Shown here: one piece after another, positions 11,794 through 61,624 of the stretch | Layout: each line of letters starts with the position of its first letter | Numbering within the stretch: the first letter of the stretch is position 1 | DNA from: Bdellovibrionota bacterium | Lineage (GTDB): Bacteria; Bdellovibrionota_C; UBA2361; JAAYZI01 | DNA: 64,000 nucleotides | Direction of reading: 5' to 3' | NCBI GenBank assembly: GCA_050950765.1 | Contig: JBMNIF010000001.1 | Location: forward strand, 352,001 to 416,000 | Position numbers and translations under genes: made by a program | Notes under the pieces: model-generated | Databases searched by the model: none | What the model was told of the DNA's origin: nothing | Seen by the model: the letters and a program-made list of their open reading frames with translations, nothing else

Positions 11794-11943
11794 TCCCTGT
11801 ACTAGCTATAAAACTTAAGATAACGGGGCGCTTTCTGATAAAGGTTTCTGATAAACCTTTTTTATGCTCATAAAGCCGCCCCATTTTTTTACCTTCGTAG
11901 AAACCTAGCCGATCCGTTTTGCAGTTGCAGCCCGTCTTTCAAC

Positions 11944-13508
11944 CCCAAACTTTCCCCTTTTTACGTATGTTAAGTAAGTAACAGTTCGGCTATTTTTAGC
12001 TCTGCTTTAGTTTGCTCGGCTAAATACCAAGAGTCCCCAAGCCTAACTTTTTTAATTTCAGATAACCTTCTGATAGCATCTTCTAATGATATTGAAGTCG
12101 AAAGTTTATGTTTTTTTATTGTTTTTAATATTTCATAGCTCCACTGTATTGCTATGTGATTCACGAACATCCATCCCTGAAATTTATCATCATCACTCAT
12201 ATATGAAGCATCTGCTTTTAAAACAGTTTTTAACGTATCAAAAGATTGTTCAATAGATAGTCGCATTTTGTATAACGTGTATATTTCTTCTGCGGATGAG
12301 TCCAAATTTGAAAAGAATGCAACAGTTCCTAGCCTCACTTTTTTTAAATCAACATCTGTTAAATTGTATTTTTCTGGATGAGATATTGTTAATGAAACTA
12401 AGTTATTTTCCTCTTCACCTGCTAAAAACGGGTCTCTAAACAGATATATAAATCCATTCCCAATCTTATATTTTTTATATCTTAAGTACGTTTTATTATA
12501 TTCAATAACGTTCCTGCTTGTTTCTATTCCATCATAGTCTATAAGAGAGCTATTTCTACGCAATGGAATAACAAAGCTAAGTTTATTCTCTATAAGATCT
12601 TTAACGTTAGACTCTGAATAGAAACCCTTATCTGCAATAATAGTAGCATCACCAATTTCTGATTCTTGGATAGTTAAAGATAGAGCTTTTACATCTCTTA
12701 TATTCCCAGCCAATAACCTATAATAGACTGGTTGTTGCAATTTTTTAGAGTAAATATAAAGCAAACTCGCCTGCGTTTCCCAAAAATGGTCTTTATTATA
12801 TCCTCCTTTAGCAAGACTCGACTTTCTCATAGATGTTCTAAGAAATGTAGAATCAATTAACAAAAAATCTTTTCCATGAATAAAACTCTTCATATATTCA
12901 GAACGAGCAAATTCATCTTTCCCAATCGATTGCAAAATATTCGGAATAGCTTTCTTATTAAGAAGAAAATTAAGTTTTTCACTCAACATACTGTTTTCAA
13001 AATCATCATTCATGCGTTTAATAGGAGAGCAATGTTTGATCCTGCTGTATGACATCAGCAAAATAGCCTTCCACTTATCTGGAAAATAACACCGAAGTCT
13101 TTCAATAATTGTTTTTTGATTGAGGATAAATTGAGATAAACCATACTCTCTGCACTTAATATTCACAGCAGGTACAAGGCTTCTCTTCTCACTTGGTATA
13201 AAACCGTCCTCTTCTGTAATTCGTCCAAGTAATTTACCAGTAACTTTCACGCTCCTTTTCCTCTCAGGGTCATACTTATAGCTGTAGCTATATAGGTAAT
13301 ATCTCCCATTGATAAGACGTACCTCTTTTCCTTTCTCTCGATATTTTGTTGCCCAATCAGGGTGTATTTTTGCTTTCTTTCCCATACCTAAATACGTATG
13401 TCAAAACAACAAAAAAGTCAACCCCCTTTTTTGTTAATTTTTAAAAAATTTCTATAGGTTATAACAATATGTTACTTTATTGTTACGTAAATCACAGAAA
13501 AGTTTGGG
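11944..13508 (-). mobile_element. IS1634-like (IS4-type DDE) insertion sequence, 1565 bp
   Basis: TIRs CCCAAACTTT...AAAGTTTGGG; 6-bp TSD TTCAAC at 11938-11943 and 13509-13514; interrupts a repeat module. Confidence 0.9.
11970..13385 (-). CDS. DDE transposase
   Basis: IDST, IADKGFYS and Y-K-x-R-x-x-IEQSFDTLK (YREK-like) motifs; 471 aa. Confidence 0.92.
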   Translation of the reverse strand: MGKKAKIHPDWATKYREKGKEVRLINGRYYLYSYSYKYDPERKRSVKVTGKLLGRITEEDGFIPSEKRSLVPAVNIKCREYGLSQFILNQKTIIERLRCYFPDKWKAILLMSYSRIKHCSPIKRMNDDFENSMLSEKLNFLLNKKAIPNILQSIGKDEFARSEYMKSFIHGKDFLLIDSTFLRTSMRKSSLAKGGYNKDHFWETQASLLYIYSKKLQQPVYYRLLAGNIRDVKALSLTIQESEIGDATIIADKGFYSESNVKDLIENKLSFVIPLRRNSSLIDYDGIETSRNVIEYNKTYLRYKKYKIGNGFIYLFRDPFLAGEEENNLVSLTISHPEKYNLTDVDLKKVRLGTVAFFSNLDSSAEEIYTLYKMRLSIEQSFDTLKTVLKADASYMSDDDKFQGWMFVNHIAIQWSYEILKTIKKHKLSTSISLEDAIRRLSEIKKVRLGDSWYLAEQTKAELKIAELLLT

Positions 13509-13892
13509 TTCAACCGGTGGGCGGTCGTCCTTGGTGGGTGGCACCAAAACCACCAAATGTTAAGTTTTCGCTAACATTTTGATATTATTAGCTATCGTAA
13601 TTTTAGAGTCTTGTAGCACTAGTGGGTGGCACCAAAAAGTCGAATTCTAAACTTTTGCTAACATCTTGATATTATTGAATGTTGTAATTTTAGAGTCTTT
13701 TAGCTCTGGTGGGTGGAACCGTCCTTGAAGGGTGGCACCAAATTCCCAGCCACCAGAACTAAGCCTGCTCAGTTATTCTTGGTGGGTGGTACCAAATTTT
13801 TAACCTCCGTAAAGATCTAGCTGATCCGCTTTGCAGTTGCAGCCCGTCTTTCAACCGGTGGGCAACTGTCCCTGAAGGGTGGCACCAAATTA
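13509..13892 (-). repeat. Mosaic repeat array; its first module begins at ~11890, before the IS
   Basis: ~6 GGGTGGCACC-type cores; IHF-consensus modules at 13572-13584 and ~13659. Confidence 0.9.
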
Positions 13893-13895
13893 AAC

Positions 13896-14629
13896 TTATC
13901 TACTCTCGCGTCTGCGTTCTTCTTCTTCAGTCCGCATTTTCCAATTATGCTCTTCAAGCCACATATCAAATATTTCATCTTTGTTCATTGTGACTTCGTT
14001 TTTTTTAATCCTATCATCACTCTCTGGAAATAAGACCTTACACTTTGTCTCTTTAGAAAATTGGTTAAATTTGAATATCTCTTTATCAGTTAAAGAAGAG
14101 CATTCTCTTAAATCAAGTTGTTTTAAATTTGCATAATAAATTCCTTGAATCCCATGAGGGAGATGATGTTCACTAACTATAACTAGCTTCTCTAAGGTTT
14201 CTATATACATGCATGCCCAGCATACTTCATCAAATAGAGAATTATGTATTCTGTCTGAAGTGGTTATTTCGAGAGTTCTAAGTCCTGTAAATTTTCTTAA
14301 CTCATCTCCCAGTATATTTACTTGGTCGCTATAGTCTCCGGTTTTTAAAGTTAGTTTTTCTAAACTTGAAAATGTTTCTGCAATAGGATTGATTTTTTCT
14401 TTAAAAGTTTCTTCATTATTAAGCCAAGCAGCAAGCTTTTTAAAGTCAAGAGTTAAGCTAACTACTTCACCAAGTTTATTAGTTTCTATATCTTCAGCTT
14501 TAATACCTGATTCTTTTAAAACTTTGAAATGTTCTGGGCAAACTTGCTTGCCGTCATAATCTATTAATTTGGGGACTGTGAGTTCCTCCCCCCCCTCTCA
14601 TCTTTTGGAGTTTTTTCAAATAGTTGCAT
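13896..14629 (-). pseudogene. LRR-like protein frameshifted at a G8 tract (244 aa if G9)
   Basis: GAGAGGA RBS and ATG at 14629; C8 at 14588-14595; the alternative frame is open into ORF 13896-14210; LEKLTL, LRTLEI and LKQLDLRECSSLTD repeats. Confidence 0.75.
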
Positions 14630-14760
14630 AATTTCCTCTCATATTTTAGAATTATTTTTACAATCGAAAGCATGATTCTAGAGCAATTTTCTAAAATCAC
14701 TATTAGCATATTCTAACACAAACTAGTTTTGCTTCTTAAAAGTTGCAATAGACTCTTCTT

Positions 14761-15347
14761 ACTGAAGGGTGGCACCAAATTTTTAACCTCCGTCCAGATC
14801 TAGCTGATCCCGCTTTTTAGTTGCAGCCCGTCTTTCAACCGGTGGGCGGTCGTCCTTGAAGGGTGGCACCTGCTTTTTAAGCCCCTTCCAATTAGGACAC
14901 CCACTTTTTGCTGAAGGGTGGCACCAAATTTTTAACCTCCGTAAGGATCTAGCCGATCCGTTTTGCAATTTTATCCCGTTCGGTCGTCCCTGAAGGGTGG
15001 CACCAAATTTTTTACCTCCGTCCAGATCTAGCTGATCCCGTTTTTTAGTTGCAGCCAGTCTTTCAACCGGTGGGCAACCGTCCCTGAAGGGTGGCACCAA
15101 AAAGCCGAATTCTAAACTTTTGCTAACGTCTTGATATTATTAGATGTTGTAATTTTAGACTCTTTTAGCTCTGGTGGGTGGCACCTGCTTTTTAAGCCCC
15201 TTCCAATTAGGACACCCACTTTTTACTGAAGGGTGGCACCAAATTTTTGACCCCAAATTTTTGACCTCCGTCCAGATCTAGCTGAGCCCGTTTTTTAGTT
15301 GCAGCCCGTCTTTCAACCGGTGGCAACCGTCCTTGGTGGGTGGCGCT
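14761..15347 (-). repeat. Mosaic repeat array
   Basis: ~8 GGGTGGCACC cores, GGACACCC cores, IHF consensus at 15124-15136. Confidence 0.92.
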
Positions 15348-15396
15348 CTTACTGCTGGGGTGGGGGGTCGTCACTGGCGGGGGGCGGCATTAGAAT

Positions 15397-16809
15397 TTAA
15401 CGGTGCCTCGTTTGTAAGGTTGAAACGATATCACCTAAAGTGATCCCCTTTTCTTCTAGCAAAACCAAAAGGTGATAAAGTAGATCTGAAACTTCGCCAT
15501 TAAGAGCTTCCTTTCCCTGAGCGAGGGCAGCAACTATCACTTCTACCGCTTCTTCACCGACCTTTTCTGTAATCTTCGGCACCCCTTTTTGAAAAAGGTT
15601 ACAGGTGTAGGAGGCTTCTTTAGGGTTACGCTTACGCTCTGCAATCAATTCCTGTAAAGAGAGGAGAAATTGTAACGGATGTTGAAAAGTTACCTCCCCA
15701 AAACAGCTCTTACTACCACTATGACAGGTCGGACCAGCCGGATCTGCTAAAATAAGGAGGGTATCTTTATCACAATCATGAAAGATGTTTTTTAAAAGTA
15801 AAAAATTAGAGGAGGTCTCGCCTTTCACCCATAAACGATTTTGAGAGCGACTGAAAAAGGTAACTTTGCCGCTTTCTAGAGTTTTTAACAAAGCTTCCTG
15901 ATTCATGTAGCCTAACATTAAAACTTCTCCGCTCTTGTAGTGCTGTATTACAGCGGGGATAAGTCCGTCACCTTTCGTAAAATCAAGATCTGCAATGTTA
16001 AATTTTGAGTTCAAAGCGCCTTCCAAAGTTTCTAAAGATCCGTTTTTAGGCGGAGTTATTTTAACAGGAACGTTTTCATCTGCTAAGTACCTCTTGAGCC
16101 CTGAAATTGAAAGCTCTCCAAAGTGAAAGATACCAGCTGCTAAGGCGGCATCAGCACGCCCTTTTGTTAAAACTTCAAGGAAGTGTTCTTTTTTTCCAGC
16201 TCCACCTGAGGCAATGACAGGGATGTGACAAGCGTTTGAAACACTTTGCGTCAACTCTACATCAAAGCCCTGCTTTGTCCCGTCACAATCCATGCTAGTT
16301 AATAATATCTCACCTGCACCACGCGCTTCCGCTTCTTTTGCCCATTCAATTACATCTTTGCCTGTGGCGTTGCGACCACCATGTGTATAAACTTCCCAAC
16401 CTTTTGAAGTACGTTTTGCATCAATGGCAATTACAACACACTTACTACCAAAGCGATCGGCTAGGGCAGTGATAATAGCAGGATCTTTAACAGCAGCTGT
16501 GTTGATGCCGATCTTATTCGCACCCGCTTCTAATAAAGCGATGCCATCTTCAAGGGATTGTACACCACCTCCAACGATAAACGGGATATCAATTTCCGCA
16601 GCGATCTTTTTTACCAGATCGCGTAACGTCTCTCGTTTTTCGAGAGTTGCTGTAATATCTAAAAAAACGAGTTCATCAGCACCGTGCTCCACGTATGTTT
16701 TTGCTAGTTCTACGGGATCGCCAGCATCAATCAGATTAACGAAGTTTACTCCCTTAACGGTCCTGCCATCTTTAATATCAAGACACGGTATGATGCGTTT
16801 TATTAGCAT
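15397..16809 (-). CDS. hisF-hisIE: Fused HisF-HisI-HisE (IGP synthase cyclase, PRA-CH, PRA-PH)
   Basis: [16 protein letters not shown] (HisF); DCDKDTLL...GPTCHSG (HisI); SYT..LF..G...I..KVGEEAVE (HisE). Confidence 0.93.
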
Positions 16810-16833
16810 ATTAAAAATCCTTACAAATTCACT

Positions 16834-17691
16834 TTAATATTTTTTTAATAACATAGCACTCCAACCCTCTGCCTTGCGGATCTCCTTACGTTCCCAGAGC
16901 GGATCTGTGTAGCGCGAGAGTTCGGGGAGGTCTGCACTATGAAATCCTGAAATAAGTAGCCAAGCGCCGTGCTTAGTTGCTTTATACAGTACGTCATGCA
17001 GCTTTTCCAGTAATTCGGCGTAGAGGTTTGCTATAACTAGATCGTATTCACCATTAAACCATGAGGCGGCATCTGCTTGGCAGACAGAGACACTCGAAGT
17101 GACATTATTTAAAGTGACGTTTTCAATAGCATTAGCTACCGCATCGGGGTCGTTATCAAAAGCGTCTACGCTAGCATTAAAAAGTTTGGAGGCGGCAATG
17201 GCTAAAAGTCCACTACCTGTTCCGACATCGAGGACACGTTTAGGGCAGCACTTTTTTAGATCTTCATTTTGTAAGATTGCAGTAGCTTGATTTGTTGTGG
17301 CGTGATGTCCTGTTCCAAAGCCGCAACCAGGGATAATGTAGATCTCTTGTGCGGTGGCTTGAGGTAGCGCCTGCCCCTGTTCCAAACTCAGAACGGGGAT
17401 GATAGTGAGATTATTTATTTCAAGTTTCTGCCAAACCTCTTCACACTTTTGCACCCAATTCGTTGCAGGAACAGGTTCAGCAGAGATAATTTTTAAAGGA
17501 AGTGAGGTGACGTTTTTCGAAAATGAAGCTAGCCCATCTTTCGTTGCTTGCAAAAAACATTGAATTTGATGGTTTTCTAAAAGCTCCGTGCCGGAAGCCC
17601 CCAGATCAATTAACTCACACCCTAAAAGGTCTAAGTCCGCTGTGCTATCTGCTTCTAAAAGGATTGACCACCAAATAATATCGCTCTGCAT
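16834..17691 (-). CDS. prmA: Ribosomal protein L11 methyltransferase
   Basis: PGCGFGTGHHATT, VLDVGTGSGLLAI and DLVIANL motifs. Confidence 0.92.
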   Translation of the reverse strand: MQSDIIWWSILLEADSTADLDLLGCELIDLGASGTELLENHQIQCFLQATKDGLASFSKNVTSLPLKIISAEPVPATNWVQKCEEVWQKLEINNLTIIPVLSLEQGQALPQATAQEIYIIPGCGFGTGHHATTNQATAILQNEDLKKCCPKRVLDVGTGSGLLAIAASKLFNASVDAFDNDPDAVANAIENVTLNNVTSSVSVCQADAASWFNGEYDLVIANLYAELLEKLHDVLYKATKHGAWLLISGFHSADLPELSRYTDPLWERKEIRKAEGWSAMLLKKY

Positions 17692-17730
17692 ATTTATCTC
17701 TATAATCGATTTATAATGAAGTTGTTCAAG

Positions 17731-18210: not shown

Positions 18211-18717
18211 TATCTATCTACCTTAGTTAATACTACTCAATCTTTATTCTTATTTAATACTCCAAGCCGTTAGAGATGGGAAAGGGGAAAACTCTAATTT
18301 ATTGATTGTGATCTCGTTTAGATCTTTGCTAATGGAGAAAAAAGAAGGTAAAAACCTCAACAATCTTTTTCAGATAATTTGTAGTGATGTTAGTCAGATA
18401 GCTCGGATAGTGAACGCCCTTAAACGGTTAAAACCTTGTGTTTTGTTTTCTCAAGATGTATAGGGTGTTGCGATTCCATTGTTGTTGATCGTATCTCTCC
18501 TCTTAAAAAAGTGAGGTAGGGGCGGAGAGCGTGTTTTGATGTATACGCTTCAAAGTCTATCTATTGACCTATTCGTGATAGCGATAGCATAAATAGCTCT
18601 GACTTCTTGTGCGGTCTCGGTCTGTTTCGAGGCGGTTATGCCGAGTGTTTAGCCGCTGAAATAATGCTCTCCGAGTAATTTGTTTTTGTTTTTGTAAGTT
18701 TTTTTGAGGATAAGCTG

Positions 18718-23656: not shown

Positions 23657-24532
23657 GGTGCCACCCTTCAGCTAAAAGTGGGTGTCCTAATTGAAAATTT
23701 GGTGCCACCCTTCAGTTTGGGCAGATCTAGCAATTTTAGCTGCGGCTGTCGCTGGTGCCACCCACCAGTAAAAAGTGGGTGTCCTAATTGGCAACGGGGT
23801 TAAAAACTGGTGCCACCCATTAATACCGCAGACGCTCTAAAACTACCTAACTAATAATATCAAGACGTTAGCAAAAGCTTAAAATTTGGCAGTTTTGGTG
23901 CCACCCTTCAGGGACGCTAGGACGGGCTGCAACTAAAAAACAAATTGGTTAGATCTTTACGAGGGTTAAAAATTTGGTGCCACCCTTCAGTTTGGGCAGA
24001 TCTAGCAATTTTAGCTGCGGCTGTCGCTGGTGCCACCCACCAGTAAAAAGTGGGTGTCCTAATTGGCAACGGGGTTAAAAACTGGTGCCACCCATTAATA
24101 CCGCAGACGCTCTAAAACTACCCTAACTAATAATATCAAGACGTTAGCAAAAGCTTAAATTTGGCAGTTTTGGTGCCACCCTTCAGTTTGGGCAGATCTA
24201 GCAATTTTAGCTGCGGCTGTCGCTGGTGCTACCCTTCAGCAAAAAGTGGGTGTCCTAATTGGCAATGGGGTTAAAAACTGGTGCCACCCATTAATACCGC
24301 AGACGCTCTAAAACTACCCTAGTTAATAATATCAGGACGTTAGCAAAAGCTTAAATTTGGCAGTTTTGGTGCCACCCACCAGTAAGACGGGATCTGGTAG
24401 ATTTAGCTAGCTTGCAACTGGTGCCACCCTTCAGGGACGATTGTTTAAAGTGGGTGTCCTAATTGGCAGCAGGGCTTGGATTTGGTGCCACCCTTCAGGA
24501 ATTTTTTCCCTCCCTGCAAGGTGGGTGGCACC
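23657..24532 (+). repeat. Mosaic repeat array (14 direct cores + 1 inverted)
   Basis: GGTGCCACCC cores separated by reused ~34-78 bp modules. Confidence 0.95.
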
Positions 24533-24987: not shown

Positions 24988-25745
24988 GGTGCCACCCTTC
25001 AGGGACGATTGAGCGGGCTGCAACTAAAAAACAAATTGGTTAGGTCTCTACGGAGGTCAAAAATTTGGTGCCACCCATTAATACCGCAGACGCTTTAAAA
25101 GTACCCTAACTAATAATATCAAGACGTTAGCAAAAGCTTAAATTTGGCAGTTTTGGTGCCACCCTTCAGTTTGGGCAGATCTAGCAATTTTAGCTGCGGC
25201 TGTCGCTGGTGCCACCCACCAGTAAAAAGTGGGTGTCCTAATTGGTAGCAGGGCTTGGATTTGGCGTTAAAAACTGGTGCCACCCATTAATACCGCAGAC
25301 GCTCTAAAACTACCCTAACTAATAATATCAAGACGTTAGCAAAAGCTTAAATTTGGCAGTTTTGGTGCCACCCTTCAGTTTGGGCAGATCTAGCAATTTT
25401 AGCTGCGGCTGTCGCTGGTGCTACCCTTCAGCAAAAAGTGGGTGTCCTAATTGGTAGCAGGGCTTGGATTTGGTGCCACCCTTCAGGGACGATTGAGTGG
25501 GCTGCAACTAAAAAACAAATTGGTTAGGTCTCTACGGAGGTCAAAAATTTGGTGCCACCCTTCAGGGACGATTGAGCGAGCTGCAACTAAAAAACAAATT
25601 GGTTAGGTCTCTACGGAGGTCAAAAATTTGGTGCCACCCTTCAGTAAGACGCCCCCACTAGGGACGGTTGAACGGGCTGATACTGAAAAGCGAATCAGCT
25701 AGATTTTTACGAAGGTAAAAAGTGCCACCCTTCAGCTAAAAGTGG
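24988..25745 (+). repeat. Mosaic repeat array (~11 cores)
   Basis: Same modules as 23657-24532 in a different order. Confidence 0.95.
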
Positions 25746-33498: not shown

Positions 33499-34140
33499 GG
33501 TGCCACCCTTCAGTGGCTGGGATGGTGTTAGAAAAAGAAAAGAAGGGTGGCACCAGTTTTTTAACCTCCATAGAGACCTAACCGATCCCGCTTTTTACTT
33601 GCAGCCCGTCCTAGTGTCCCTGAAGGGTGGCACCAGTGAGCAGGGCTAAAGGTGGGTGTCCTAATTGGGGTTTAAAGGCTACAAGAAGGGTGGCACCAGA
33701 TCTAGCTAGCCGAATTTTGGTTTTTTGTTTGAATTTAGCATGTTAGAAGTTAAGTTGTTGAAATATAAGGGGAGGCTCTAAGACTGACGAGAATGTAATG
33801 AAGGGTGGCACCAGATTTTTAACCCCCGTACGAATCTAGCTGATCCCGCTTTTTAGTTGCAGCCCGTCCTAGTGTCCCTGAAGGGTGGCACCAGTGACAA
33901 GCCAGTGGACAGGGCTAAAGATGGGTGTCCTAATTGGGGTTATGAAGGGTGGCACCAGATCCGGTCACCAGATTCAGCTAGCCGAGTTTTGGTGTTTTTA
34001 AAGTTAAGGTATTGAAATATAAGGGGAAGTTTTAAGACAGATGAGAATGTAATAAAGGGTGGCACCAGTTTTTTAACCCCCGTAGAGACCTAACCAATTC
34101 GTTTTGCAGTTGCAGCCCGTCCGATCGTCCCTGAAGGGTG
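33499..34140 (-). repeat. Mosaic repeat array
   Basis: ~8 cores, mostly GGGTGGCACC on +; GGGTGTCCTAATT modules; IHF-like TAAGTTGTTGAAAT. Confidence 0.9.
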
Positions 34141-34740: not shown

Positions 34741-34959
34741 ATGTCTGAGAATAAAATGATTGAAGAGCTTCTGGAAGTTCAGGAAGAGAAAAGAGAGAAG
34801 GGTGCTACTATGGTTGAGTATGCAATTATGGTTATCGTTATCTTCGTAATTGTGTATGGTGGAATGAAATTTTTTGGAACGAGTATGAGTGCAACGTATT
34901 CTCAAGCTGGTACAACCCTTGAAACAGGTAAAAATCAAATCGCGAGTGTTACATTTTAA
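34741..34959 (+). CDS. Flp/Fap type IVb pilin
   Basis: KG|ATMVEYAIMV processing motif, hydrophobic helix, GGAGG RBS. Confidence 0.9.
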   Translation: MSENKMIEELLEVQEEKREKGATMVEYAIMVIVIFVIVYGGMKFFGTSMSATYSQAGTTLETGKNQIASVTF

Positions 34960-35118: not shown

Positions 35119-35322
35119 ATGCTTGAAGAAGATAAGGTTAAAGATTTGGAAAGTTGCAAAAAAACACGCGGCGCGACTATGGTCGAGTACGCTGTAATGG
35201 TGATTATAATTTTTGTAGTTGTCTTTGCTGGTGTTAAGTTTTTTGGACAGAACTTAAGTGGACTCTTTAGTGCTTACGGACAAAAATTGGGAGAAGCAAA
35301 AGATGCTGTTAGTAAAACGTGA
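35119..35322 (+). CDS. Flp/Fap type IVb pilin (paralog)
   Basis: RG|ATMVEYAVMV motif. Confidence 0.9.
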   Translation: MLEEDKVKDLESCKKTRGATMVEYAVMVIIIFVVVFAGVKFFGQNLSGLFSAYGQKLGEAKDAVSKT

Positions 35323-35661: not shown

Positions 35662-37192
<1,531 letters not shown>

Positions 37193-38735: not shown

Positions 38736-39242
38736 ATGGTGCCGCTTATGGCTGAAGCGTTGCTTTCCATATCTTTTTTGGATCTTAATGCTGCCGATAG
38801 GATGCAAGAGATAGAGGCAGCTTCTGGTGCTCCGAGCCCTTGGAGTAAACAACTTTTTTTAAATGAGTTTTTAAATACCACATCAAAGATCTATGGTGCT
38901 GCACTAGAAGGTGTTGGAGTTGTTGGGTTTTTAATCGTACATCTTGTTTTAGATGAGGCAGATATCTCTAATTTTGCGGTGTTATCACAATTTCAGGGGC
39001 GTGGTATCGGACGCGCTTTGTTGCAAAAAATGATAGATGACGTTCGTGAGGGTGGTGCTAAGGTTGTTACTTTGGAAGTTCGTGAAAATAATATAAGTGC
39101 AAGGCATCTTTATGAGAGTCTTGGATTTGAGGTCGTTTCAGTCAGAAAAGGGTATTACACAGATACAGGCGAAGCAGCTATCTTAATGAATCTTACCTTA
39201 TCAGAGAGTTTTTACATTCACAAAAAAGACACCCACTTTTAG
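38736..39242 (+). CDS. rimI: Ribosomal protein S18 alanine N-acetyltransferase
   Basis: PWS, QGRGIG, TLEVRENN..ARHLYESLGF...RKGYY; the last residues read into a repeat core. Confidence 0.93.
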   Translation: MVPLMAEALLSISFLDLNAADRMQEIEAASGAPSPWSKQLFLNEFLNTTSKIYGAALEGVGVVGFLIVHLVLDEADISNFAVLSQFQGRGIGRALLQKMIDDVREGGAKVVTLEVRENNISARHLYESLGFEVVSVRKGYYTDTGEAAILMNLTLSESFYIHKKDTHF

Positions 39243-40030
39243 TCGGTTTTAGTGCCACCCACCAGTAAGACGTGATCTGGCGGAAAACTGGTGCCACCCT
39301 TCAGGGACGATCGGACGGGCTGCGACGGCAAAACGAGTCAGCTGGGTCTGTACGGAGGGAATTTACTACCACTCACTAGGGACGATTGAGCGGGCTGATA
39401 TTAAAAAGAAAGTTAGTTAGGTTTTCACGGAGGTCAAAAATTTGGTGCCACCCTTCAGTGCAGATTTTAGCTTAAAGGGATGAAGTCTTTAAAATCAATA
39501 TGTTAGCATTTAACTGAAAGTGGCTAGTTTTGGTGCCACCCACTAGGGACAGCACTCCTTCAGGGACAGCTGAACGGGCTGAAGCTGCAAAGCGGATCGG
39601 CTAGATCTTTACGGGGGTAAAAAGTGGGTGTCCTAATTGGCAGCAGGGCTTTGGAGTTGGTGCCACCCTTCAGTGCAGATTTTAGCTTAAAGGGATGAAG
39701 TCTTTAAAATCAATATGTTAGCATTTAACTGAAAGTGGCTGGTTTTGGTGCCACCCACCAGTAAGACGCGGAGGGAATTTACTACCACCCACTAGGGACG
39801 ATTGAGCGGGCTGATATTAAAAAGAAAGTTAGTTAGGTTTTCACGGGGGTCAAAAATTTGGTGCCACCCTTCAGTGCAGATTTTAGTTTAAAAGGATGAA
39901 GTCTTTAAAATCAATATGTTAGCATTTAACTGAAAGTGGCTAGTTTTGGTGCCACCCTTCAGGGACGGCTCTTCAAGGACGGTTGGACGGGCTGCAACTG
40001 CAGACGAGTCGATTAGGTCTGTACGGAGGA
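39221..40030 (+). repeat. Mosaic repeat array
   Basis: ~8 GGTGCCACCC cores; a module containing AATCAATATGTTA (IHF consensus) occurs three times. Confidence 0.92.
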
Positions 40031-40123
40031 AGGGGCTCCGTCAGGTATGGGTGAAGTTAGCTATATTTAATGAATCTTGCCTTATCACCATAGGTTGACT
40101 ATGCTACCCCGCCTTCGTGTCGT

Positions 40124-50594: not shown

Positions 50595-50818
50595 AAAAGG
50601 GCACCTTTTTGGTGCCACCCTTCGGGGACGACAGAACGGGCTCAAACAGAAGAGTGAATCGGCTAGATCTTTGACGGGGGTTAAAAAACAGGTGCCACCC
50701 TTCTTTATTATAACCTTGCCAAGCAAAGTGTTTAAACCATAAAATGGTAATAAACTAATAATATCGATATGTTAGCTAAGTTTTAAAATTTAACTAAAAG
50801 TGGGTGTCCTAATTGGCA
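50595..50818 (+). repeat. Short mosaic repeat array
   Basis: Two GGTGCCACCC cores, an IHF-like module and a GGGTGTCCTAATT core. Confidence 0.85.
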
Positions 50819-52293: not shown

Positions 52294-52756
52294 AAAAGGA
52301 CACCCACCTTTACTGGTGCCACCCTTCTTTATTAGAAGGTTAGTAAGCAAAGTGCCTAAATCTTAAAATGCAAACAATCTAATAATATCGATATGTTAGC
52401 TAAATCTTGAAATTTAACTAAAAGTGGGTGTCCTAATTAGCTAGCAGCAGATGGCTCTTGTGTCGCCCACCTAAAAAGGACACCCACCCTAAGCTGAAGG
52501 GCGGCACCAAATTTTTGACCCTCATCCAGATCTAGCCAATTTATTTTGCAGTCGCAGCCCGTCCAGTCGTCACTGAAGGGTGGCACCAAATTTTCTCCCC
52601 AGCCTTCCAAAAAGGACACCCACTTTTACTGGTGCCACCCTTCTTTAGTAGAAGCTTGGTAAAGAAGATATTTTAATCTTCAAATGGCAACAATCTAATA
52701 ATATCGATATATTAGCTAAGCCTTAGAATTTAACTAAAAGTGGGTGTCCTAATTAG
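52294..52756. repeat. Mosaic repeat array between convergent genes
   Basis: Two ~145-bp AAAAAGGACACCC...GGGTGTCCTAATT units flanking an inverted module. Confidence 0.88.
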
Positions 52757-55313: not shown

Positions 55314-55395
55314 ATCTTAAGTCCTAAAAAAAGATGATTAAGCGAAAACGGAGCTTGACGCTTTTAATCGTTCTCGCTCAATCATACTTGCGGGT

Positions 55396-56631
55396 CTATT
55401 TTTTCTGCCAGTCCAAGATCGATCTAAAGAGATAATCTTCCGGATTTGGGATTATCTTTCTGGCTGCTTCAACGTCTGAAGTAGTCAAAAAGTGCAAAAT
55501 ATTGTTTATCGTCTGTTTTACGACATCATTTTCGATGTTAAGTAAACGAGTACGAACCTTGCCTGTTTCCGGATTTTGAATATCCTTCAGATGAAGCGGA
55601 ACGATCTTATCGTCTTTATCAACGGTGACCATACAACCTGTATGCCCTTCAGAAAAGAGCTTATAAACACCTGCGCCTAAAGCTGTGCAGTATTGTAGGT
55701 CTGAAGCGATCGGTCTGACACAACGCAGTTCATAACCGATATCATTCGGACGACTCTTAATTTTAACACCTAGCTCTTTTAATCTGCGTTGCAATAAGGT
55801 GTTAAAGATCTGACCTTTTGAGAGAATGCCAAGCTCGGGATGTCCGTGGTCGTCATAAGTGAATTGAATGCCAGAATCCTTTAATTCTGATTCAGGAATC
55901 GAATGGAATACACCTTCACTAACTATGATGATACCGTAATCAAGCCCTAACAGTTGTCGTTTGATGATGGTCGAAACCATTAAGCGAGTGATCCTCTCTA
56001 AGGTGCACTCAACTTTATTAAACATCTCGGGAACTATGATCATAGCGGCGTTACAAGCTTCACCTATTGCAAAAGCTAAGTGACCTGCTTCACGTCCCAT
56101 AGCAGCCATCACAAACCAATTACCAGTTGTGCGAGCATCTTCGTTAATTGTCAACGCAATACGTGTGCCTTCTTCTGTCGCAGTTTTGAAGCCGAAAGTT
56201 GGTATGCCTTCTGGTAACGGGAGGTCGTTATCGATCGTTTTTGGAACATGAATATTAGTAACTTGTACATCGTGTTCTTTAAGATACTTGGCTATTCTAG
56301 TTGCAGTTGAGGCGGTGTCGTCTCCACCGACAGTAACCAATAACTTTATGTTGTGACGTACGAAAAAAGTTGTATTGAACTCATCATCTTTTGGTTTGTA
56401 ACGACTCATCCTAAGAGCGGATCCACCACGAGAATGGATACGATCGGCCATTTTGATATCTATGTTGAGGACGTGATCAGTGCCCATATCGTTGAACAAG
56501 GCTTGATATCCACCGTGCAAACCTAAAACTCGATATCCTCTAGCAAGGAATGTTTTTGCGACTGCTGATATAACGGCATTCATGCCGGGAGCCGGTCCAC
56601 CGGCACATAAAATAACGACTGATTCTTGCAT
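55396..56631 (-). CDS. pfp: Phosphofructokinase, probably PPi-dependent
   Basis: GGPAPGMN, GGDDT, PKTIDND, MGR and GYELR motifs. Confidence 0.9.
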   Translation of the reverse strand: MQESVVILCAGGPAPGMNAVISAVAKTFLARGYRVLGLHGGYQALFNDMGTDHVLNIDIKMADRIHSRGGSALRMSRYKPKDDEFNTTFFVRHNIKLLVTVGGDDTASTATRIAKYLKEHDVQVTNIHVPKTIDNDLPLPEGIPTFGFKTATEEGTRIALTINEDARTTGNWFVMAAMGREAGHLAFAIGEACNAAMIIVPEMFNKVECTLERITRLMVSTIIKRQLLGLDYGIIIVSEGVFHSIPESELKDSGIQFTYDDHGHPELGILSKGQIFNTLLQRRLKELGVKIKSRPNDIGYELRCVRPIASDLQYCTALGAGVYKLFSEGHTGCMVTVDKDDKIVPLHLKDIQNPETGKVRTRLLNIENDVVKQTINNILHFLTTSDVEAARKIIPNPEDYLFRSILDWQKK

Positions 56632-56898
56632 TTTGTTGTACCTTCAAAAAAATATGAAAGAGATACCACCTTTGGAGTTATTAATATTTTGGTATCCTTC
56701 CTACGTTCTAACACTGCAATGTAACCTAGCGCATTTTAATTGAAAATAACACCCGCAATAAACAGATAAGTCAAAAAATAACTATTTTTATTATAATAAA
56801 ATCAACGCATTAGTTGACTGTGGGGGGAATCTTTAATTATTTAAGGATAAAAAATCTTTTAAACGTCAATATTTGCCAAGTTTTTATGCAATCGCCTT

Positions 56899-57422
56899 TA
56901 AAAAGGACACCCACTTTTATAGCGCAGTTCTTAAGGATAGTAACCTAGATGATTGGGTGTCCTATTTATGTTGTGGTGTAAGAAGCTCGGTAGGCTAAGG
57001 TTGGAATCTCCCCCTCCCTAAAAAGGACACCCACTTTTAGGTGATTTTTAAGTTTTGGCTAACATTCTGATAGTACTAACTTATTGCAATTTTAAGCTTT
57101 GGGTGTCTTGTTTACAAAGCGCGCAACAGATGAGGGTGGCACCTGTTTTACCGTATTCTATTGTTAGTACTGTTAGTGCAAAGTTGGTCTCTTTGTAAAT
57201 TTGGGTGTCCTATTTGCAGGTCGCAGTTCTTAAGGATAGTAACCTAGATGATTGGGTGTCCTATTTATGTTGTGGTGTAAGAAGCTCGGCAGGCTAAGGT
57301 TGGAATCCCCCTTACTTACTTACTTACTTAAAAAGGACACCCACTTTTAGGTGAATTTTAAGTTTTGCCTAACATTCTGATAGTACTAACTTATTGCAAT
57401 TTTAAGCTTTGGGTGTCCTATT
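56899..57422. repeat. GGACACCC/GGGTGTCC-dominated array, internally duplicated
   Basis: ~56924-57108 repeated at ~57222-57419; (CTTA)5 in the second copy. Confidence 0.88.
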
Positions 57423-57434
57423 TATAGATCCTAA

Positions 57435-59714
57435 TTATTCATATTCGTATTTGTTGTAATCGGGTAGGGGCTCTTCTTTTTCTTCTTCCTCTTCAACAAT
57501 ATTAACTCCACGCACCAGTTTTGAATTTAAAGGTGGCAATAGGTTGGTTGGACGTGACCAAGTCACGATGCAGAGGTTCTCTTCAGCGCGAGTCATAGCG
57601 GTGTAAAGTAAATTACGCCCGCGTTGGTCTGAGGGGTAACCTCTCGAAGTTGGGTTCCACAACAACACATTAACGAATTCAAGCCCTTTGGAATGCAAAA
57701 CATCGGTTACAATAATACCCTCTTCGAAAGAGAAAGAGTGCTCATCTCCCAGTCTCACCAACTGCCCGAAGCTCGGTTCAAGGAGGCTGGCTGTGACTTT
57801 TGCCTCTTGTAGAGTCGCTGTAATAACTGCGGTTAAGGCAGTAGGATAACGTTGAACGGCTTTGTTTAACCACTCGACTACTTCAAAAAAACCTTTTTCT
57901 TCAGTGTAACACTTAAACCAGATCGGTGTGCGACCAGGTCGTCCCTGTGTAACGAGATCTCGTCCTTGGACATATTCTGCTAAACGCATGATCTGCAAAG
58001 TTGATCTGTGACTGACAGTTAATGTGACATATTTTGAGAGGGACTCTTTAAACTTCCAGTGTCGCATTAATTTATCCCAGCCTGGAAAATCAACTCCGGC
58101 ATAGATATTTTGAGAGGTATCGCCGACTAATGTCAGCTGTTTTTTGTCTTTTACGCCTTCAATGAAAATAGCCAAATCCATCGGACTAAAATCTTGTGCT
58201 TCATCTACAACGATATGATCCAAAAGCCCTTGACTGCCATCGGGAAGGGTTAAAAGACCGCCACGCAAACGGTGTAAACGAATAAAAATGGCATCTAAAG
58301 CATAGTCAAGAACGTGTGCATTTTTTAACGCTTCAACGAAAGTTTTTGTTTCTGCAACAACATCTTTATCGATTAGTTTTGTCTCGTCATAAGAGATGAT
58401 CATTTCAGAGTTTGAAAGGATCTGAATAAGGGAGTCAAAAAAGGATGGTGTTACGATCTTTGTTAAACGACTATGCAGATCAAAGATACCGACATGCATT
58501 GGATGTTGCGGATTAAAAGTTTGTAAGCCACGAATTGAAGCGTTTAATAAGTTTTGTAAGATCTCTGAAGGGTGTTTTTTTGCTTCTTGATTAGAATGGA
58601 AAGCTTTTATTATTCCACTTGGAATTTTATTCCAGTCTGTTTTTGTTGTGATATCTTGCAACGCTTTTGAAAGTCTGTCCGTTTCCCATTCTTCAAGAGC
58701 TGTCAAAAGTGCCATTGAACGCAAAGTGCGTTGCACACCTAGTGGCGCAGGTGTGGACGGTCTTTTGATATCGCCGTCCGCATCAATCAAGTCAGGGCAT
58801 ATCTTTGTAATAGTTTTCTTTGTCCAGTCGTGATACGTCAAAACATTTACCCCTGGGACTCCGATAGATGGTAAAAAATTCTCAACGTAGGCCTTCAAAA
58901 TTTTACTGAGAACGACCACAACACATCGCTCCGCTTTTAAATCAGAATTATCTTCATGTAAAAGCCAAGCCAAACGGTGCAGGGCGACTGTGGTTTTACC
59001 AGAACCCGCAATGCCTTGAATTAGAATTGCAGTTTCTGAATCCTCTGTAATAGTTTGAAACTGCTCTTTAGTTATTAACGAAAGGACATCCGGTAACGTT
59101 CCACGGGAGCCTGAGTGTCGAGGGTGTCGTGCCTGAGAGCCTTGCCAAGTATCATTCTTGTCTCGAAAGAAATTGCCGTATCGACAAGATAACTTCATAA
59201 GTTGTTGATCTTCTATTTCAACAGAATTGCGTAATTTTACGAATCCATAACGTTCGTTACCTTGAATTTCTTCGCAGTACTCGTCACCCTCTCTATAATC
59301 ATAGTATAGCTTTGAGATAGGGGCTTTGCGCCAATCGATGATACGGGCATCCGGATTTGCAGAAAAACCTAGTTTGTATTCATATTGTTTGGTTTGTCCG
59401 TTAGAGTCTTCTTCTAGAACGAAACGGGCAAAATACGGTTTGTCGATCTGCTTTTGAAGGATTTCAATATCAGCTGCTTTTTTGTGACTTATGGCGTGCG
59501 CCACAGCTTCGTCAGAGGCCAGTAAAGCTTTTTCTTCCTCTCTAAATGTGGCAACTATTTCAGAAGTAAGCTCTCTCGCTTTTCTACTTTCACTTTGCAG
59601 CTTTGTTGAAGAGTGGCTTAATTGTGCGTGTAGGGAATCTAGTACATTGCTAAGACATTGCTCTTCTTCATTTATTGCTGCTAATGCTTCTTGAGATAAT
59701 TCTTTTGTACTCAT
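57435..59714 (-). CDS. helD: HelD-like SF1 ATPase (RNA polymerase recycling factor)
   Basis: PYFAR, IIDWRKAPISKLYY, GIAGSGKTTVALHR, VDEAQD, KGLEF and LYTAMTRA motifs. Confidence 0.85.
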   Translation of the reverse strand: MSTKELSQEALAAINEEEQCLSNVLDSLHAQLSHSSTKLQSESRKARELTSEIVATFREEEKALLASDEAVAHAISHKKAADIEILQKQIDKPYFARFVLEEDSNGQTKQYEYKLGFSANPDARIIDWRKAPISKLYYDYREGDEYCEEIQGNERYGFVKLRNSVEIEDQQLMKLSCRYGNFFRDKNDTWQGSQARHPRHSGSRGTLPDVLSLITKEQFQTITEDSETAILIQGIAGSGKTTVALHRLAWLLHEDNSDLKAERCVVVVLSKILKAYVENFLPSIGVPGVNVLTYHDWTKKTITKICPDLIDADGDIKRPSTPAPLGVQRTLRSMALLTALEEWETDRLSKALQDITTKTDWNKIPSGIIKAFHSNQEAKKHPSEILQNLLNASIRGLQTFNPQHPMHVGIFDLHSRLTKIVTPSFFDSLIQILSNSEMIISYDETKLIDKDVVAETKTFVEALKNAHVLDYALDAIFIRLHRLRGGLLTLPDGSQGLLDHIVVDEAQDFSPMDLAIFIEGVKDKKQLTLVGDTSQNIYAGVDFPGWDKLMRHWKFKESLSKYVTLTVSHRSTLQIMRLAEYVQGRDLVTQGRPGRTPIWFKCYTEEKGFFEVVEWLNKAVQRYPTALTAVITATLQEAKVTASLLEPSFGQLVRLGDEHSFSFEEGIIVTDVLHSKGLEFVNVLLWNPTSRGYPSDQRGRNLLYTAMTRAEENLCIVTWSRPTNLLPPLNSKLVRGVNIVEEEEEKEEPLPDYNKYEYE

Positions 59715-59837
59715 AACTAAAAAATATAGAAATTATGAAATATCGAAAAGTTTGAAAATACGGCAATATAAAAAGAGTAGCAAGAGGGGAAGTATTGTAG
59801 TAAGTCCAAAGAGTAAGTTTTTACGGGATTTTAAGGG

Positions 59838-60947
59838 ATGTTTTTAATTTTACTTTTTTTGTCATTGATAGTGTCTGTGACCACGCCGAGCGTCGGAATG
59901 TGCGTTGCTGTTATAGGTGCTTTACTGGCAATGTATTTAGAAAAGAAAAAACACGGTTTAGGGATCTTTTTTTCTGGTGTGGTGACGCCGCTTTTTTCTC
60001 TCTTTGGTTCTGGGACGTTGCTTTTGTTCTTTTTAATCTTTCTTGCTTTTCGCAAGGAACGCGTGCATTTTTGGAAACTAGGTCGTGCTTGGTTTTATCT
60101 CGCTTTAATCGCTTTCTGGGTAGTGGCAGAGCTTATTTGTGGAATATTTTATTTTAGAGATTGGCTCGATCATATCACCACAACGCCACCGCACGTTATT
60201 TTTTCTTTTGTTGAAGCTATCAGATTTTTCTTGTTTATTGGGTTATGTCATTTATTTTCTGAGAGTGAATATAAAAGAGAGCAATTTTTTAGAGGATTAG
60301 TAAGGGGCTTAACAATAAGTGCATTTATTGTGTTGGTGCAGTTGTGTTTGCCGCAAATTCGGCACCTTTTTATAAATCAGAATACTTTTTGGAGTTCTAT
60401 CGGAAGATATCCTGGAACGTTTAGTGATCCAAATGCTTTTGGAGTCTTTGTAGGATTGGCGTTTGCGCCGTTACTTTGTTTTGCCCAGCGCAATAGGTTT
60501 GCACGTTTTTTAATGTTGTTGTGGATTGTATTAGGGGTGTTTTCAGGATCTTGCAGCTTTTTTATCGCGCTCTTTTTATATGTTGCTGCTTGGCTATTCT
60601 TTTATAGTAAGAAGTTCTTCTGCGCTTCGCTCTGTTGTCTGTTGTTATTTTGTGGGGGTGTTAAATATTTTGCAAGTTCAGATCCAGATAGATTTTTAAG
60701 AGTGGTAGATACTCTTCCCAGCGGACTTAGTCGGATCGCTAAAATATTTTCTTCAGATGGAGTAAGTGAAGCTTTAAATTCTAGGATAGTATTTTGGAAA
60801 ATTGATTGGAAGATGTTGACGGAATCGCCATTTGGAGGTTTCGGGATTTTGTCAGGGATAGGGTTTAATCAGTTTGAAAGATTTTTACCTTATTACGGTG
60901 CAAAAGAATCTCAAAAAGGACACCCACTTTTAGGGTGGCTGCTTTAG
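59838..60947 (+). CDS. O-antigen ligase/Wzy-like membrane protein, probably C-terminally truncated
   Basis: Multiple TM helices; GTFSDPNAFG, SRIVFW and GIGFNQF motifs; then reads into a repeat core and stops. Confidence 0.7.
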   Translation: MFLILLFLSLIVSVTTPSVGMCVAVIGALLAMYLEKKKHGLGIFFSGVVTPLFSLFGSGTLLLFFLIFLAFRKERVHFWKLGRAWFYLALIAFWVVAELICGIFYFRDWLDHITTTPPHVIFSFVEAIRFFLFIGLCHLFSESEYKREQFFRGLVRGLTISAFIVLVQLCLPQIRHLFINQNTFWSSIGRYPGTFSDPNAFGVFVGLAFAPLLCFAQRNRFARFLMLLWIVLGVFSGSCSFFIALFLYVAAWLFFYSKKFFCASLCCLLLFCGGVKYFASSDPDRFLRVVDTLPSGLSRIAKIFSSDGVSEALNSRIVFWKIDWKMLTESPFGGFGILSGIGFNQFERFLPYYGAKESQKGHPLLGWLL

Positions 60948-61624
60948 AGTTTGGTTGATCTTGTTGCCACTGCTCTGATTTAGGACACCCACCAAAGCCA
61001 CCAAGTTCATCCGATCTATTTAGGACACCCATTCTAGTTAACGCCCCAACTTTTGTTAACGTTTTGATATTATTAAATTGGCTTCAAAAAGGACACCCAC
61101 TTTTGGTAGTGGCTGCTTTAGAGTTTGGCGGTCTACTGCCACTCGCCTTGTTAGAGATGGTATTAAATTGGGTGTCCTAATTGGAATTCCCTAATTGGAA
61201 TTGTGTCAGTGAATTTGGGGTGTCCTTTTTGGTGCAGCACCAACCTGCTGAGGGGAAGGGGATTTTGGGTGTCTTAATTAGAGTCGTAGGGAGGCTGCTT
61301 TAGAGTTTGGTTGATCTTATTGCCACTGCTGATTTAGGACACCCATTCTAGTTAACGCCTCAACTTTTGTTAACGTTTTGATATTATTAAACTGACTTCA
61401 AAAAGGACACCCACTTTTGGTAGTGGTTGTTTTAGAGTTTGGCGTTCTACTACCACTCGCCTTGTTAGAGATGGGATCAAATTGGGTGTCCTAATTGGAA
61501 TTGATGATGAATTTTGGGTGTCCTTTTTGGTGTAGCACTAGTTTGCTGAGGGAGGAGATTTTGGGTGTCCTTTTTGGTGCAGCACTAGTTTGCTGAGGAA
61601 GGGGATTTTGGGTGTCCTAATTGG
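60913..61624. repeat. GGACACCC/GGGTGTCC-dominated mosaic array
   Basis: More than 12 cores in both orientations; IHF consensus at 61057-61069 and ~61370. Confidence 0.9.

Follow-up and report, generated by a model that had tools for sequence, protein, structure and literature searches.

Intergenic repeat arrays of a Bdellovibrionota genome as probable amplified ends of two HUH/Y1 transposable elements

Background

The MITEs of TIR-bounded insertion sequences are non-autonomous derivatives which exploit a mobile transposase via its terminal repeat. The known system closest to the arrays described here is the TIRtron, in which a RAYT-like Y1 gene (TIRYT) lies between terminal inverted repeats (TIRs) that have no relation to the GTAG REPs, and the TIRs make up scattered families in which they stand as dimers or clusters, some of them partly self-complementary (Di Nocera, De Gregorio, Rocco 2013, PMC3733652). 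In the available part of that account the TIR families are moderately abundant and the TIRYTs less productive, the motif GGGGWSAS belongs to only some of the TIRs, and there is no mention of IHF motifs, of phasing or of gene copies that are nearly identical.

In E. coli, the REPs are GTAG-footed hairpins of 20-40 nt that alternate in orientation; TnpA-REP binds them as folded single-stranded DNA and cleaves between C and T. The REPs build intergenic mosaics (BIMEs) of a conserved site and limited linkers, with an IHF site in the linker and a proposed capture of flanks (Ton-Hoang 2012, PMC3333891; Corneloup 2021, PMC8266576). The tnpA-REP gene is single-copy, and the texts available state no evidence for mobility of this gene (PMC8266576) or of RAYT genes in general (PMC8266576; 10.1101/2021.07.10.451892). 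RAYT group 1 is reported to have a raised share of duplicates, 6.3%, second to the IS-like group 6 (Bertels 2017, PMC5581495). The TnpA-Y1 subclasses 2.1 and 2.3 comprise long proteins of class 2 which carry Y---NP and are extended at the C-terminus, 2.1.2 being marked by a C-terminal HTH and 2.1.1 by a conserved extension; as far as the accessible text goes, automatic and manual searches gave no REP-like sequence near 2.1 and 2.3 genes, and gene copies were of low identity (Quentin 2018, PMC6006769).

Results

Repeat arrays in the window and in the genome

The window is a stretch of 64,000 nt from the genome of a Bdellovibrionota bacterium. A first-pass annotation had described ten intergenic arrays in it, and all ten were located. 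The approximately 60 copies of core A reported there came to 55 (34 plus, 21 minus), every one inside the ten arrays as proposed, and the many copies of core B to 38 (23 plus, 15 minus), with 37 of the 38 inside.

Three of the arrays run on the minus strand. The one at 11880..13892 holds four exact A cores at 13536-13886 and IHF consensus matches at 13572 and 13659; a DDE insertion sequence (11944-13508) splits its d-type module, which resumes to the left of the IS. The array at 14761..15347 (7 A and 2 B cores, IHF consensus at 15124) lies 3' of a hisF/hisIE-like gene, and that at 33499..34140 (8 A, 2 B) contains an inverted core pair of the kind that the six enzyme A copies described below have at their left end. 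On the plus strand, the array at 23657..24532 (14 A, 5 B; IHF consensus at 23858 and 24134) begins 11 bp past the stop of a 3-beta-HSD-family gene and ends in an inverted core pair. Its neighbour at 24988..25745 (9 A, 2 B; IHF consensus at 25117 and 25326) has modules a, b, c and d in common with it in a different order, and independent clustering recovered the module orders that had been given for both. At 39160..40087 (7 A and 1 B, cores at 39290-39957, IHF consensus at 39493, 39708 and 39909) the far side carries, as a captured flank, a diverged repeat of about 45 bp from the upstream acetyltransferase gene's 3' part, and about 22 bp of flank is duplicated across the array after proB (50595..50818; 2 A, 1 B). 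No strand is assigned to the last three: a mixed array with cores in both orientations between convergent genes (52294..52756; 3 A, 5 B), a B-dominated array (56899..57422; 7 B, 1 A), and a B-only array with 12 cores in both orientations (60913..61624; IHF consensus at 61057 and 61371). The names proposed for the neighbouring genes held, apart from the LRR gene: ORF 13896-14210 matched no LRR family.

Counting the cores genome-wide, as the annotation had suggested, gave an excess for both. Core A occurs 967 times against 6.5 expected from an order-3 Markov model (the order-5 expectation of 49.9 is inflated by the repeats themselves), core B 221 times against 31-50, and a reversed-pattern control twice. 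A total of 105 intergenic arrays spanning 66.5 kb, or 2.5% of the 2.6 Mb genome, hold 929 A cores, the longest with up to 32 cores, and only 17 of the 967 A cores lie within ORFs of at least 200 aa, though such ORFs make up 74% of the genome. The arrays consist of head-to-tail units of a core plus variable adjacent DNA, sometimes with copied neighbouring DNA, and 907 of the 929 A cores (98%) have the majority orientation of their array. Co-orientation with the upstream gene was seen for 78 of the 105; the proposed start directly after a stop codon is loosely true, the co-oriented arrays beginning at a median of 67-89 bp, and fails for the array at 33499. An IS608-like lagging-strand preference was considered and rejected, as array orientation follows gene direction instead, and no lagging-strand bias beyond gene direction was found.

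The cores are 8-10 bp long and preceded by pyrimidine-T in 96-97% of cases. Core A had been called non-palindromic, which does not stand as a simple statement since it contains the interrupted palindrome GGTG-C-CACC.

Modules, spacing and IHF motifs

The small library of reused modules that had been proposed was not borne out: the 802 modules include 704 distinct ones and fall into 313 clusters, only 12 of which have at least 10 members. Just 22 of 700 adjacent modules have a neighbour of the same family. Exact cores number 929 versus 49 with one mismatch, a conservation partly ascertained because arrays were defined by exact cores, and modules differ from their consensus by 7-16% per site. 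Hairpins or RNA structure in the modules were rejected (mean folding z from -1.6 to +0.4 in five module families), and compensatory covariation was sought in 88 d modules and not found.

Core spacing in this genome follows multiples of approximately 11 bp. The B-to-B spacings show no clear phasing (R 0.24, n=24). Among the relatives, spacings in G027, G020 and G030 bunch at 20-33 bp, a range too narrow for a phasing test, and those in G019 are not clearly phased. As a sequence motif, the IHF consensus matched 116 times forward and 4 times in reverse (shuffled mean 1.4), and 102 matches lie 25-26 bp before a core. Taken together, the spacing and the placement of the motifs suggest that recognition may be double-stranded.

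An enzyme enclosed by inverted copies of core A

The annotation had placed a possible HUH nuclease of RAYT/TnpA-REP type elsewhere in the genome and found none in the window. Both points were borne out, and a search for Y1/RAYT genes flanked by the cores gave six for core A and, unforeseen, one unrelated enzyme for core B, all outside the window. Enzyme A has 322 aa and is encoded at C1:184279-185247, C2:7699-8667, C2:892198-893166, C2:1186626-1187594, C3:210795-211763 and C5:7978-8946. Inverted copies of core A stand on both sides of all six genes; the element so delimited is 1.3-1.5 kb long, encodes enzyme A and has core A as its terminal inverted repeat. Five of the six copies specify an identical protein, and over 969 nt the genes differ by 0-14 nt; of the variable codons, 15 are synonymous and 3 non-synonymous. 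In all four sequencing runs the contig bearing the gene was approximately 4-5.5x deeper than its single-copy neighbours. At three copies the core is followed by partial tandem copies of the right end of the element.

The protein carries H61-F-H63 (HUH) and Y121-x3-NP, and all 43 homologs in the alignment keep both motifs unchanged. Its predicted structure (pLDDT 92) had E. coli TnpA-REP 4ER8 as best match in both structure searches (Foldseek E 1.2e-6; Z 14.2, rmsd 2.9 over 154 aligned residues) and IS608 TnpA at Z 7.7, a comparison which barely covers residues past ~235. By this model enzyme A has the TnpA-REP fold and belongs to TnpA-Y1 class 2 (RAYT superfamily). Against NF047646 (REP-associated tyrosine transposase, curated cut-off 80 bits) enzyme A scored 67.4 and enzyme B 31.9 bits, so both are related to this family yet outside the equivalog. 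None of the 43 family members matched an HTH family, and the alignment contains a long conserved extension. Atlas look-alikes of the C-terminal half scored below 0.9 and belong to unnamed Myxococcota-rich clusters.

Single-sequence search of genome contigs gave no relatives of enzyme A, nor did plasmids. We also observed single motif matches in 17 viral stretches. The enzyme A profile, on the other hand, found 613 clusters at E 1e-30 or better. An inverted match of at least 15 nt across the gene occurs at 15 of 35 homolog loci, as against direct matches at 2 of 35 and none in 120 mismatched pairs; the other 20 loci have no long inverted match. Core A itself also bounds homologs of about 30% identity in two other families (loci L034 and L049), and one relative (G025) has two 94%-identical 1.3-kb copies whose ends lie just outside core A. 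Within 15 kb of enzyme A copies we counted 22 arrays versus 10.8 for random arrays (p 0.003), an enrichment that weakens with distance, to p 0.06 at 30 kb and p 0.11 at 60 kb.

A second enzyme at core B

Enzyme B (350 aa) is encoded by a single copy 2.2 kb beyond the window end (G000:C1:418239-419291, locus L021). Core B is its terminal repeat. Of 29 homologous loci elsewhere, 21 are flanked by exact core B, in most cases as GGACACCC upstream and GGGTGTCC downstream. The distance from first H to Y is 113 aa, as opposed to 60 aa in enzyme A. With its insertion of ~55 aa between HUH and Y, its length and its Alteromonadales homologs, enzyme B appears 2.3-like by architecture. Its homologs include 13 plasmid or chromid records, 7 of them Pseudoalteromonas, at 34-41% identity over 88-99%; a single-sequence structure model reached pLDDT 38. 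Within 20 kb of the gene there are 43 B and 12 A cores, versus 87 and 693 on the other contigs, and for A and B alike the arrays are denser near the cognate enzyme gene.

Relatives

Of 14 relatives with enzyme B, 4 have at least 30 copies of core B and the other 10 fewer than 30; none of 26 relatives without the enzyme reaches 30, 12 of these absences being taken from family tallies. Each with its own end motif, G020 has 55 copies and G027 has 135, against 0-1 in four others each, and in G015 the motif is almost local, with 11 of 12 copies at the gene. Since most enzyme B carriers have few copies and the G015 motif hardly spreads, the enzyme alone does not cause amplification. Core A is amplified at this scale in 1 of 41 genomes of the order, and the other member of the family is among those without. 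G019 has 51 clustered core A copies, and five queries detected no Y1 gene in its assembly (92% complete, 20 contigs).

Assembly and other mobilisers

The annotation had named an assembly artefact as an outcome that would count against its reading. In a 20-kb stretch elsewhere in the genome, contigs of all four runs, from four studies, break at the array positions, and the array bins are covered more deeply in each run. The joints listed from the short-read data have sides of at most 30 nt, and none is trustworthy as an empty allele.

Tyrosine recombinases, proposed as core-flanked candidates, do not qualify: the three found lie at least 14 kb from the nearest array. IS110 was searched as an alternative mobiliser and not found. 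Three multicopy DDE-type elements touch arrays, and as the majority of copies sit at other sites, where they have duplications of 5-6 bp, we regard them as later insertions. Regular target-site duplication was likewise rejected; host flank is duplicated across 4 of 105 arrays (22-135 bp, diverged) versus none of ~600 control pairs.

Discussion

In our view the arrays are what amplification has made of the ends of two HUH/Y1 transposable elements bounded by TIRs, and are themselves non-autonomous; we put the probability of this reading at about 0.85. As in the TIRtron, the flanking inverted repeats are non-GTAG and the TIR forms a dispersed, clustered family, and the arrays behave like BIMEs. 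Against the moderate abundance described for TIRtrons there are 967 cores in 2.6 Mb, and neither core fits GGGGWSAS (PMC3733652, as far as available). The earlier designation as a REP/BIME analogue stands for behaviour, in that a conserved site and reused linkers make up mosaics which are intergenic, lie 3' of genes and have an IHF motif, but for the cores themselves 'terminal inverted repeats of mobile Y1 elements' is a more fitting description than REPs. Unlike the canonical REPtron (RAYT groups 2/3), with its GTAG-footed hairpin and single-copy immobile gene, the core here is a 1-nt-interrupted palindrome only and enzyme A is present six times; enzyme B is single-copy here. The alternation of REP and inverted REP in BIMEs is replaced by co-orientation. 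The fold of enzyme A and the YT before core A resemble TnpA-REP and its cleavage site, judging from the text available (PMC3333891; PMC8266576). Unlike the genes reported for subclass 2.3 in the portion accessible (PMC6006769), enzyme B has a conserved terminal motif amplified genome-wide; the enzyme A family shows no HTH. The use of the terminal repeat is MITE-like (compare the background in PMC3733652, partly available), but the units are one-ended direct repeats with variable bodies, target duplications are not consistent, and the transposase is of the HUH rather than the DDE type. In the openly accessible literature searched, neither the motifs nor the arrangement was found; relative to it the extreme amplification is new, as are a RAYT-type gene that appears to have duplicated itself and a repeat cognate to a 2.3-like enzyme.

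Alternatively, the cores might derive from Y1 element ends, with nothing but host recombination, gene conversion and slippage enlarging and reordering the arrays today and the enzymes being bystanders. The block abc that occurs twice at 23657, the identical modules common to 5 of 12 array pairs within 30 kb (background 3.6%), and the cores kept in G019, where five queries gave no enzyme, are in line with this, and 19 of 80 Chi-like octamers, by the E. coli sequence, lie inside arrays. Such a process would not, however, seed 105 separate loci, and it leaves unexplained the exact cores beside drifting modules, the concentration of B around its single gene and the capture of flank up to a few bases from a core; we hold it to be very unlikely. 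Whatever their origin, the arrays could be kept by the host as platforms for chromosome architecture or 3'-end regulation, with IHF-bent, helically phased sites for a host protein. This is compatible with descent from Y1 ends and would fit the IHF consensus density (1.82 per kb in arrays versus 0.24 in other intergenic DNA), the ihfA- and ihfB-like genes of this genome, the preference for convergent gaps (39 of 105 arrays versus 211 of 1120) and the 11-bp phasing, and IHF binds BIME-1 linkers according to the text available (PMC3333891). Still, a host function sits poorly with amplification in one of 41 genomes and not in the other family member, ordinary IS insertions disrupt arrays, and the 3' location may equally mark survivors of selection against insertion, so that we find it improbable. 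Hardly credible is an assembly artefact or a dispersed host signal, be it an uptake sequence, Chi or a CRISPR-like repeat. The genome is indeed in 5 contigs and 94% complete, with arrays unspanned by short-read contigs, but 704 of 802 modules are distinct and four studies break at the same places. The spacers are homologous to one another and separate cores by 21-270 bp, an Rfam search of the window returned one tRNA only, and the cores avoid genes, unlike dispersed uptake signals.

If the arrays are amplified Y1 ends, the core would be recognised by its enzyme, which would nick a few bases 5' of it, as the YT before the cores suggests. The 3'-OH would then prime or attack, and the stretch from this nick to a second, variable one would be copied and joined beside an existing core, after the excision and rolling-circle models for E. 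coli BIMEs. Modules could thus be added locally and flanks captured; the captured DNA would include fragments of the enzyme gene, the ends of host genes and B cores. Where two inverted cores enclose the enzyme gene, it would move as a whole. Blocks of modules would later be duplicated by ordinary recombination and slippage. With less confidence, the working substrate may be a bent double-stranded complex, because of the 11-bp spacing steps, the IHF motifs at fixed distance and the non-folding modules. It counts against the enzyme-driven account that known enzymes of the TnpA-REP fold require folded single-stranded DNA, which most modules here cannot offer.

We further raise, tentatively and as something we would rather bet against, that enzymes A and B might belong to a large self-mobile Y1 HUH branch which reads a short double-stranded end motif, not a single-stranded hairpin. 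Cores on one helical face with an IHF bend 25-26 bp upstream would serve as a landing pad, comparable to IHF at CRISPR leaders; the enzyme would write captured DNA into growing cassette arrays, and the sites of two unrelated enzymes would be interleaved in phase.

The spread of REP-type repeats is an old open question, on which this genome can be brought to bear through two pairs of enzyme and motif whose defined sites measure 8-10 bp, through the six recent copies of one gene and through ~800 natural products. Concrete predictions follow, namely a nick near YT, an 11-bp phase and IHF at 25-26 bp. Sampled members of the 613 clusters often have their own end motif, and may offer orthogonal HUH tags or integrases. 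If double-stranded recognition is true, the REP/IS200 fold would gain a new mode of reading its sites, and these elements would represent the mobile ancestral state of the domesticated RAYTs.

Organization of the core arrays

The ten intergenic arrays described in the first-pass annotation, a sequence-only reading by a model, were found at the positions it gave, and the window holds 55 exact copies of the 10-bp core A and 38 of core B, with 55 A and 37 B inside arrays. The genome-wide count proposed there showed both cores to be over-represented in the source genome (G000; 2.64 Mb, 94% complete), in which the window spans C1:352001-416000: core A is present 967 times where an order-3 Markov model predicts 6.5, and core B 221 times where 31 are expected. 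Arrays with at least two A cores number 105 and comprise 929 cores and 66.5 kb, almost purely head-to-tail (907/929 cores). The claimed intergenic placement and co-orientation with the upstream gene were borne out: with genes taken from simple ORF calls, only 17 of the 967 A cores fall inside long ORFs, 78 of the 105 arrays follow their upstream gene, and convergent gaps are preferred (39/105 versus 211/1120). Among 40 relatives core A is clearly enriched only in one genome, G019 (51 copies; 0-20 in the others). Near-identical DNA is present in sequencing runs from 14 studies, mainly of digesters and bioreactors.

A DDE_Tnp_1 insertion sequence (window 11944-13508; at least nine genome copies among the matches listed) interrupts a d module, its insertion marked by a duplication of 6 bp. 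Two further multicopy elements of the source genome, one of ~1.6 kb (five copies) and one of ~1.83 kb (ten copies), with copies on contig C2 (G000:C2:1182083-1183670; C2:37813-39640; C2:896796-898624), split several arrays; their copies are found within or next to arrays as well as in unrelated DNA. Two short similar ORFs, Flp/Fap pilin-like by eye (window 34741-34959 and 35119-35322), adjoin the array at 33499, and a short tetranucleotide-type microsatellite, apparent from the repetitive peptide that a short ORF encodes, lies 5' of a sulfatase-like gene (window ~35690-35730).

The modules between same-direction cores number 802, of which 704 are distinct, and form 313 clusters; three main d-type clusters account for 140 copies. 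Their order is indeed shuffled, as the annotation stated, with same-family neighbours in only 22 of 700 cases, and the commonest family has 52 different successor families in 79 cases. Cores are conserved far above modules. The base before the core is T in 97% and position -2 a pyrimidine in 96%, a signature also present where the first core meets host DNA. Modules fold no better than shuffled sequences and lack compensatory changes; hairpins are feasible only at inverted core pairs, which are in the minority, and at A-B pairs in module b. Each of the six enzyme A gene copies carries one such inverted core pair at its left end.

Enzyme A and its homologs

A Pfam Y1_Tnp search of the source genome gave six matches, all to one 322-aa protein (five identical, one 99% identical), encoded at C1:184279, C2:7699, C2:892198, C2:1186626, C3:210795 and C5:7978. 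The nuclease predicted to be encoded elsewhere thus exists outside the window, with core A on both flanks of all six copies in a common layout: d module, core, 33-35 nt linker, inverted core, gene, ~220 nt, inverted core. The copies differ by 0-14 nucleotides, with 15 variable codons synonymous versus 3 non-synonymous. Read depth, a rough guide, was 318, 25, 16 and 32 for the enzyme A contig in four runs versus ~60, 5, 4 and 6 for its neighbours. The structure model (pLDDT 92) is nearest to E. coli TnpA-REP, and the match to NF047646 reaches 67 bits, short of the 80-bit cut-off of that family.

Enzyme A homologs occur in 36/40 relatives, often several per genome and mostly at 23-34% identity; those named are Bdellovibrionota-type MAGs. 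At 35 full-length loci (partial, frameshifted and distant homologs excluded) an inverted match of at least 15 nt with at most one mismatch spans the gene at 15 and a direct match at 2, while mismatched pairs gave 0/120. Many of these matching ends start with YTGGTR or a close variant, and core A itself is present at one locus each in G025 (L034) and G040 (L049). Two copies in G025 are 94% identical over 1.3 kb, ending a few bases outside core A, and G021 has three copies at 89-93%. The end motif is reiterated head-to-tail next to the gene in several relatives and dispersed in two of three tested genomes (G020, 55 copies; G027, 135; G015, 12).

The G027 motif, a second strongly amplified case, is a GTAG-started odd palindrome, and that genome (L141-L146) has 18 enzyme A-family matches. 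G019 (L007-L009), a 1.8-Mb genome of another family, carries its core A copies without any Y1 gene found. In a REPIN-like manner, these copies often form inverted pairs that lie 76-141 bp from each other and enclose an AT-rich spacer. At loci L023-L051 and L058-L098 a bipartite motif like GCAACTT-N11-16-CGA lies between the left terminal repeat and the start codon, often in both enzyme families; the pattern occurs anywhere in the locus at 41/81 loci versus 11.6 in shuffles, and is possibly an alternative-sigma promoter.

Enzyme B and core B

Enzyme B, first traced via a weak tblastn match, is a 350-aa Y1 protein encoded 2.2 kb past the window end (C1:418239-419291). Five B cores lie upstream and three downstream, with no A cores within 5 kb. 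Its likeness to enzyme A is limited to the catalytic region (31% over 70 aa), and the HUH-to-Y distance is 113 versus 60. This length and its named homologs, mostly Alteromonadales, agree with subclass 2.3 as set out in the available text of PMC6006769. Homologs occur in 20/123 other genomes of the phylum. Exact core B is found within 350-400 nt, chiefly inward-pointing, at 21 of 29 other loci surveyed out of 39 matches (chance ~2% by arithmetic estimate), and most of the remaining eight have one- or two-base variants. The same or a near motif is seen in Pseudoalteromonas and Aeromonas records. At least 30 core B copies are present in 4/14 relatives with enzyme B versus 0/26 without; these kin are non-independent, the four amplified ones representing four families. 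The B:A ratio is 43:12 within 20 kb of the gene versus 87:693 on other contigs, and the B-rich arrays at the window's right end are a gradient around it. The 437-aa ORF directly after enzyme B (G000:C1:419844-421157, in L021) is serpin-like by eye.

Core spacing and IHF motif

Core-to-core distances peak at 21, 32, 43, 53, 65, 79, 88, 100, 110 and 122 bp. After 53 degenerate-core modules were dropped and the rest collapsed to 155 families, the 140 of 20-130 bp gave a phase concentration at 11 bp of 0.42 (best period 11.2; genomic background 0.01), attained by 0/2000 jittered controls. Inside A modules, B cores mostly follow an A core by 22-23 bp and precede one by 32-34 or 63-64 bp. Of the matches to the IHF consensus in arrays, 116 point one way and 4 the opposite way (shuffles 1.4), and 102 sit exactly 25-26 bp ahead of the next core. 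Modules bearing it are visibly homologous (19 non-redundant spacers), hence this distance is partly inherited, though the consensus positions stay constant despite spacer drift. Genes with ihfA and ihfB as their best matches are present, with scores below curated cut-offs. In the relatives examined neither core phasing nor IHF spacing could be demonstrated.

Proposed mechanism and relation to known systems

Our results show motif-enzyme pairing, element ends, local gradients and capture of neighbouring DNA, the last at 4/105 arrays. The clearest capture is a 135-bp host segment whose two copies bracket an array of 19 cores (G000:C2:902600-904100). The element's right end is captured too, as incomplete tandem copies in which a constant boundary 6-10 nt beyond the core meets a variable point inside the element, a pattern that fits one-ended, rolling-circle-like copying. 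By analogy with HUH chemistry and the BIME models, as far as the available text of PMC3333891 describes them, a nick near a core would be followed by copying or excision of the stretch up to a second, variable nick and by rejoining beside a core. Host recombination probably adds block duplications, and we infer that core recognition may include a dsDNA/IHF step. IHF-folded landing pads are known for CRISPR leaders, according to the available part of 10.1101/2023.05.26.542337. Counting against the mechanism, no enzyme was detected in G019 despite its core A copies, and most hosts of these enzymes have few repeats.

The REP/BIME analogy of the first-pass annotation holds for the BIME-like working but not for the identity of the repeats, as there is no GTAG hairpin and no alternating orientation, and the enzyme A gene is multicopy. 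The system falls within the TIRtron/TIRYT definition as worded in the available part of PMC3733652. No account of the core A or core B motifs was found in the literature outside paywalled work. Relative to published descriptions, as far as their available text goes, what is new is the scale, the near-identical dispersed copies of the enzyme gene, an amplified cognate repeat for a subclass-2.3-like enzyme, arrays that combine the sites of both systems, and the helical phasing together with an IHF motif at a constant position.
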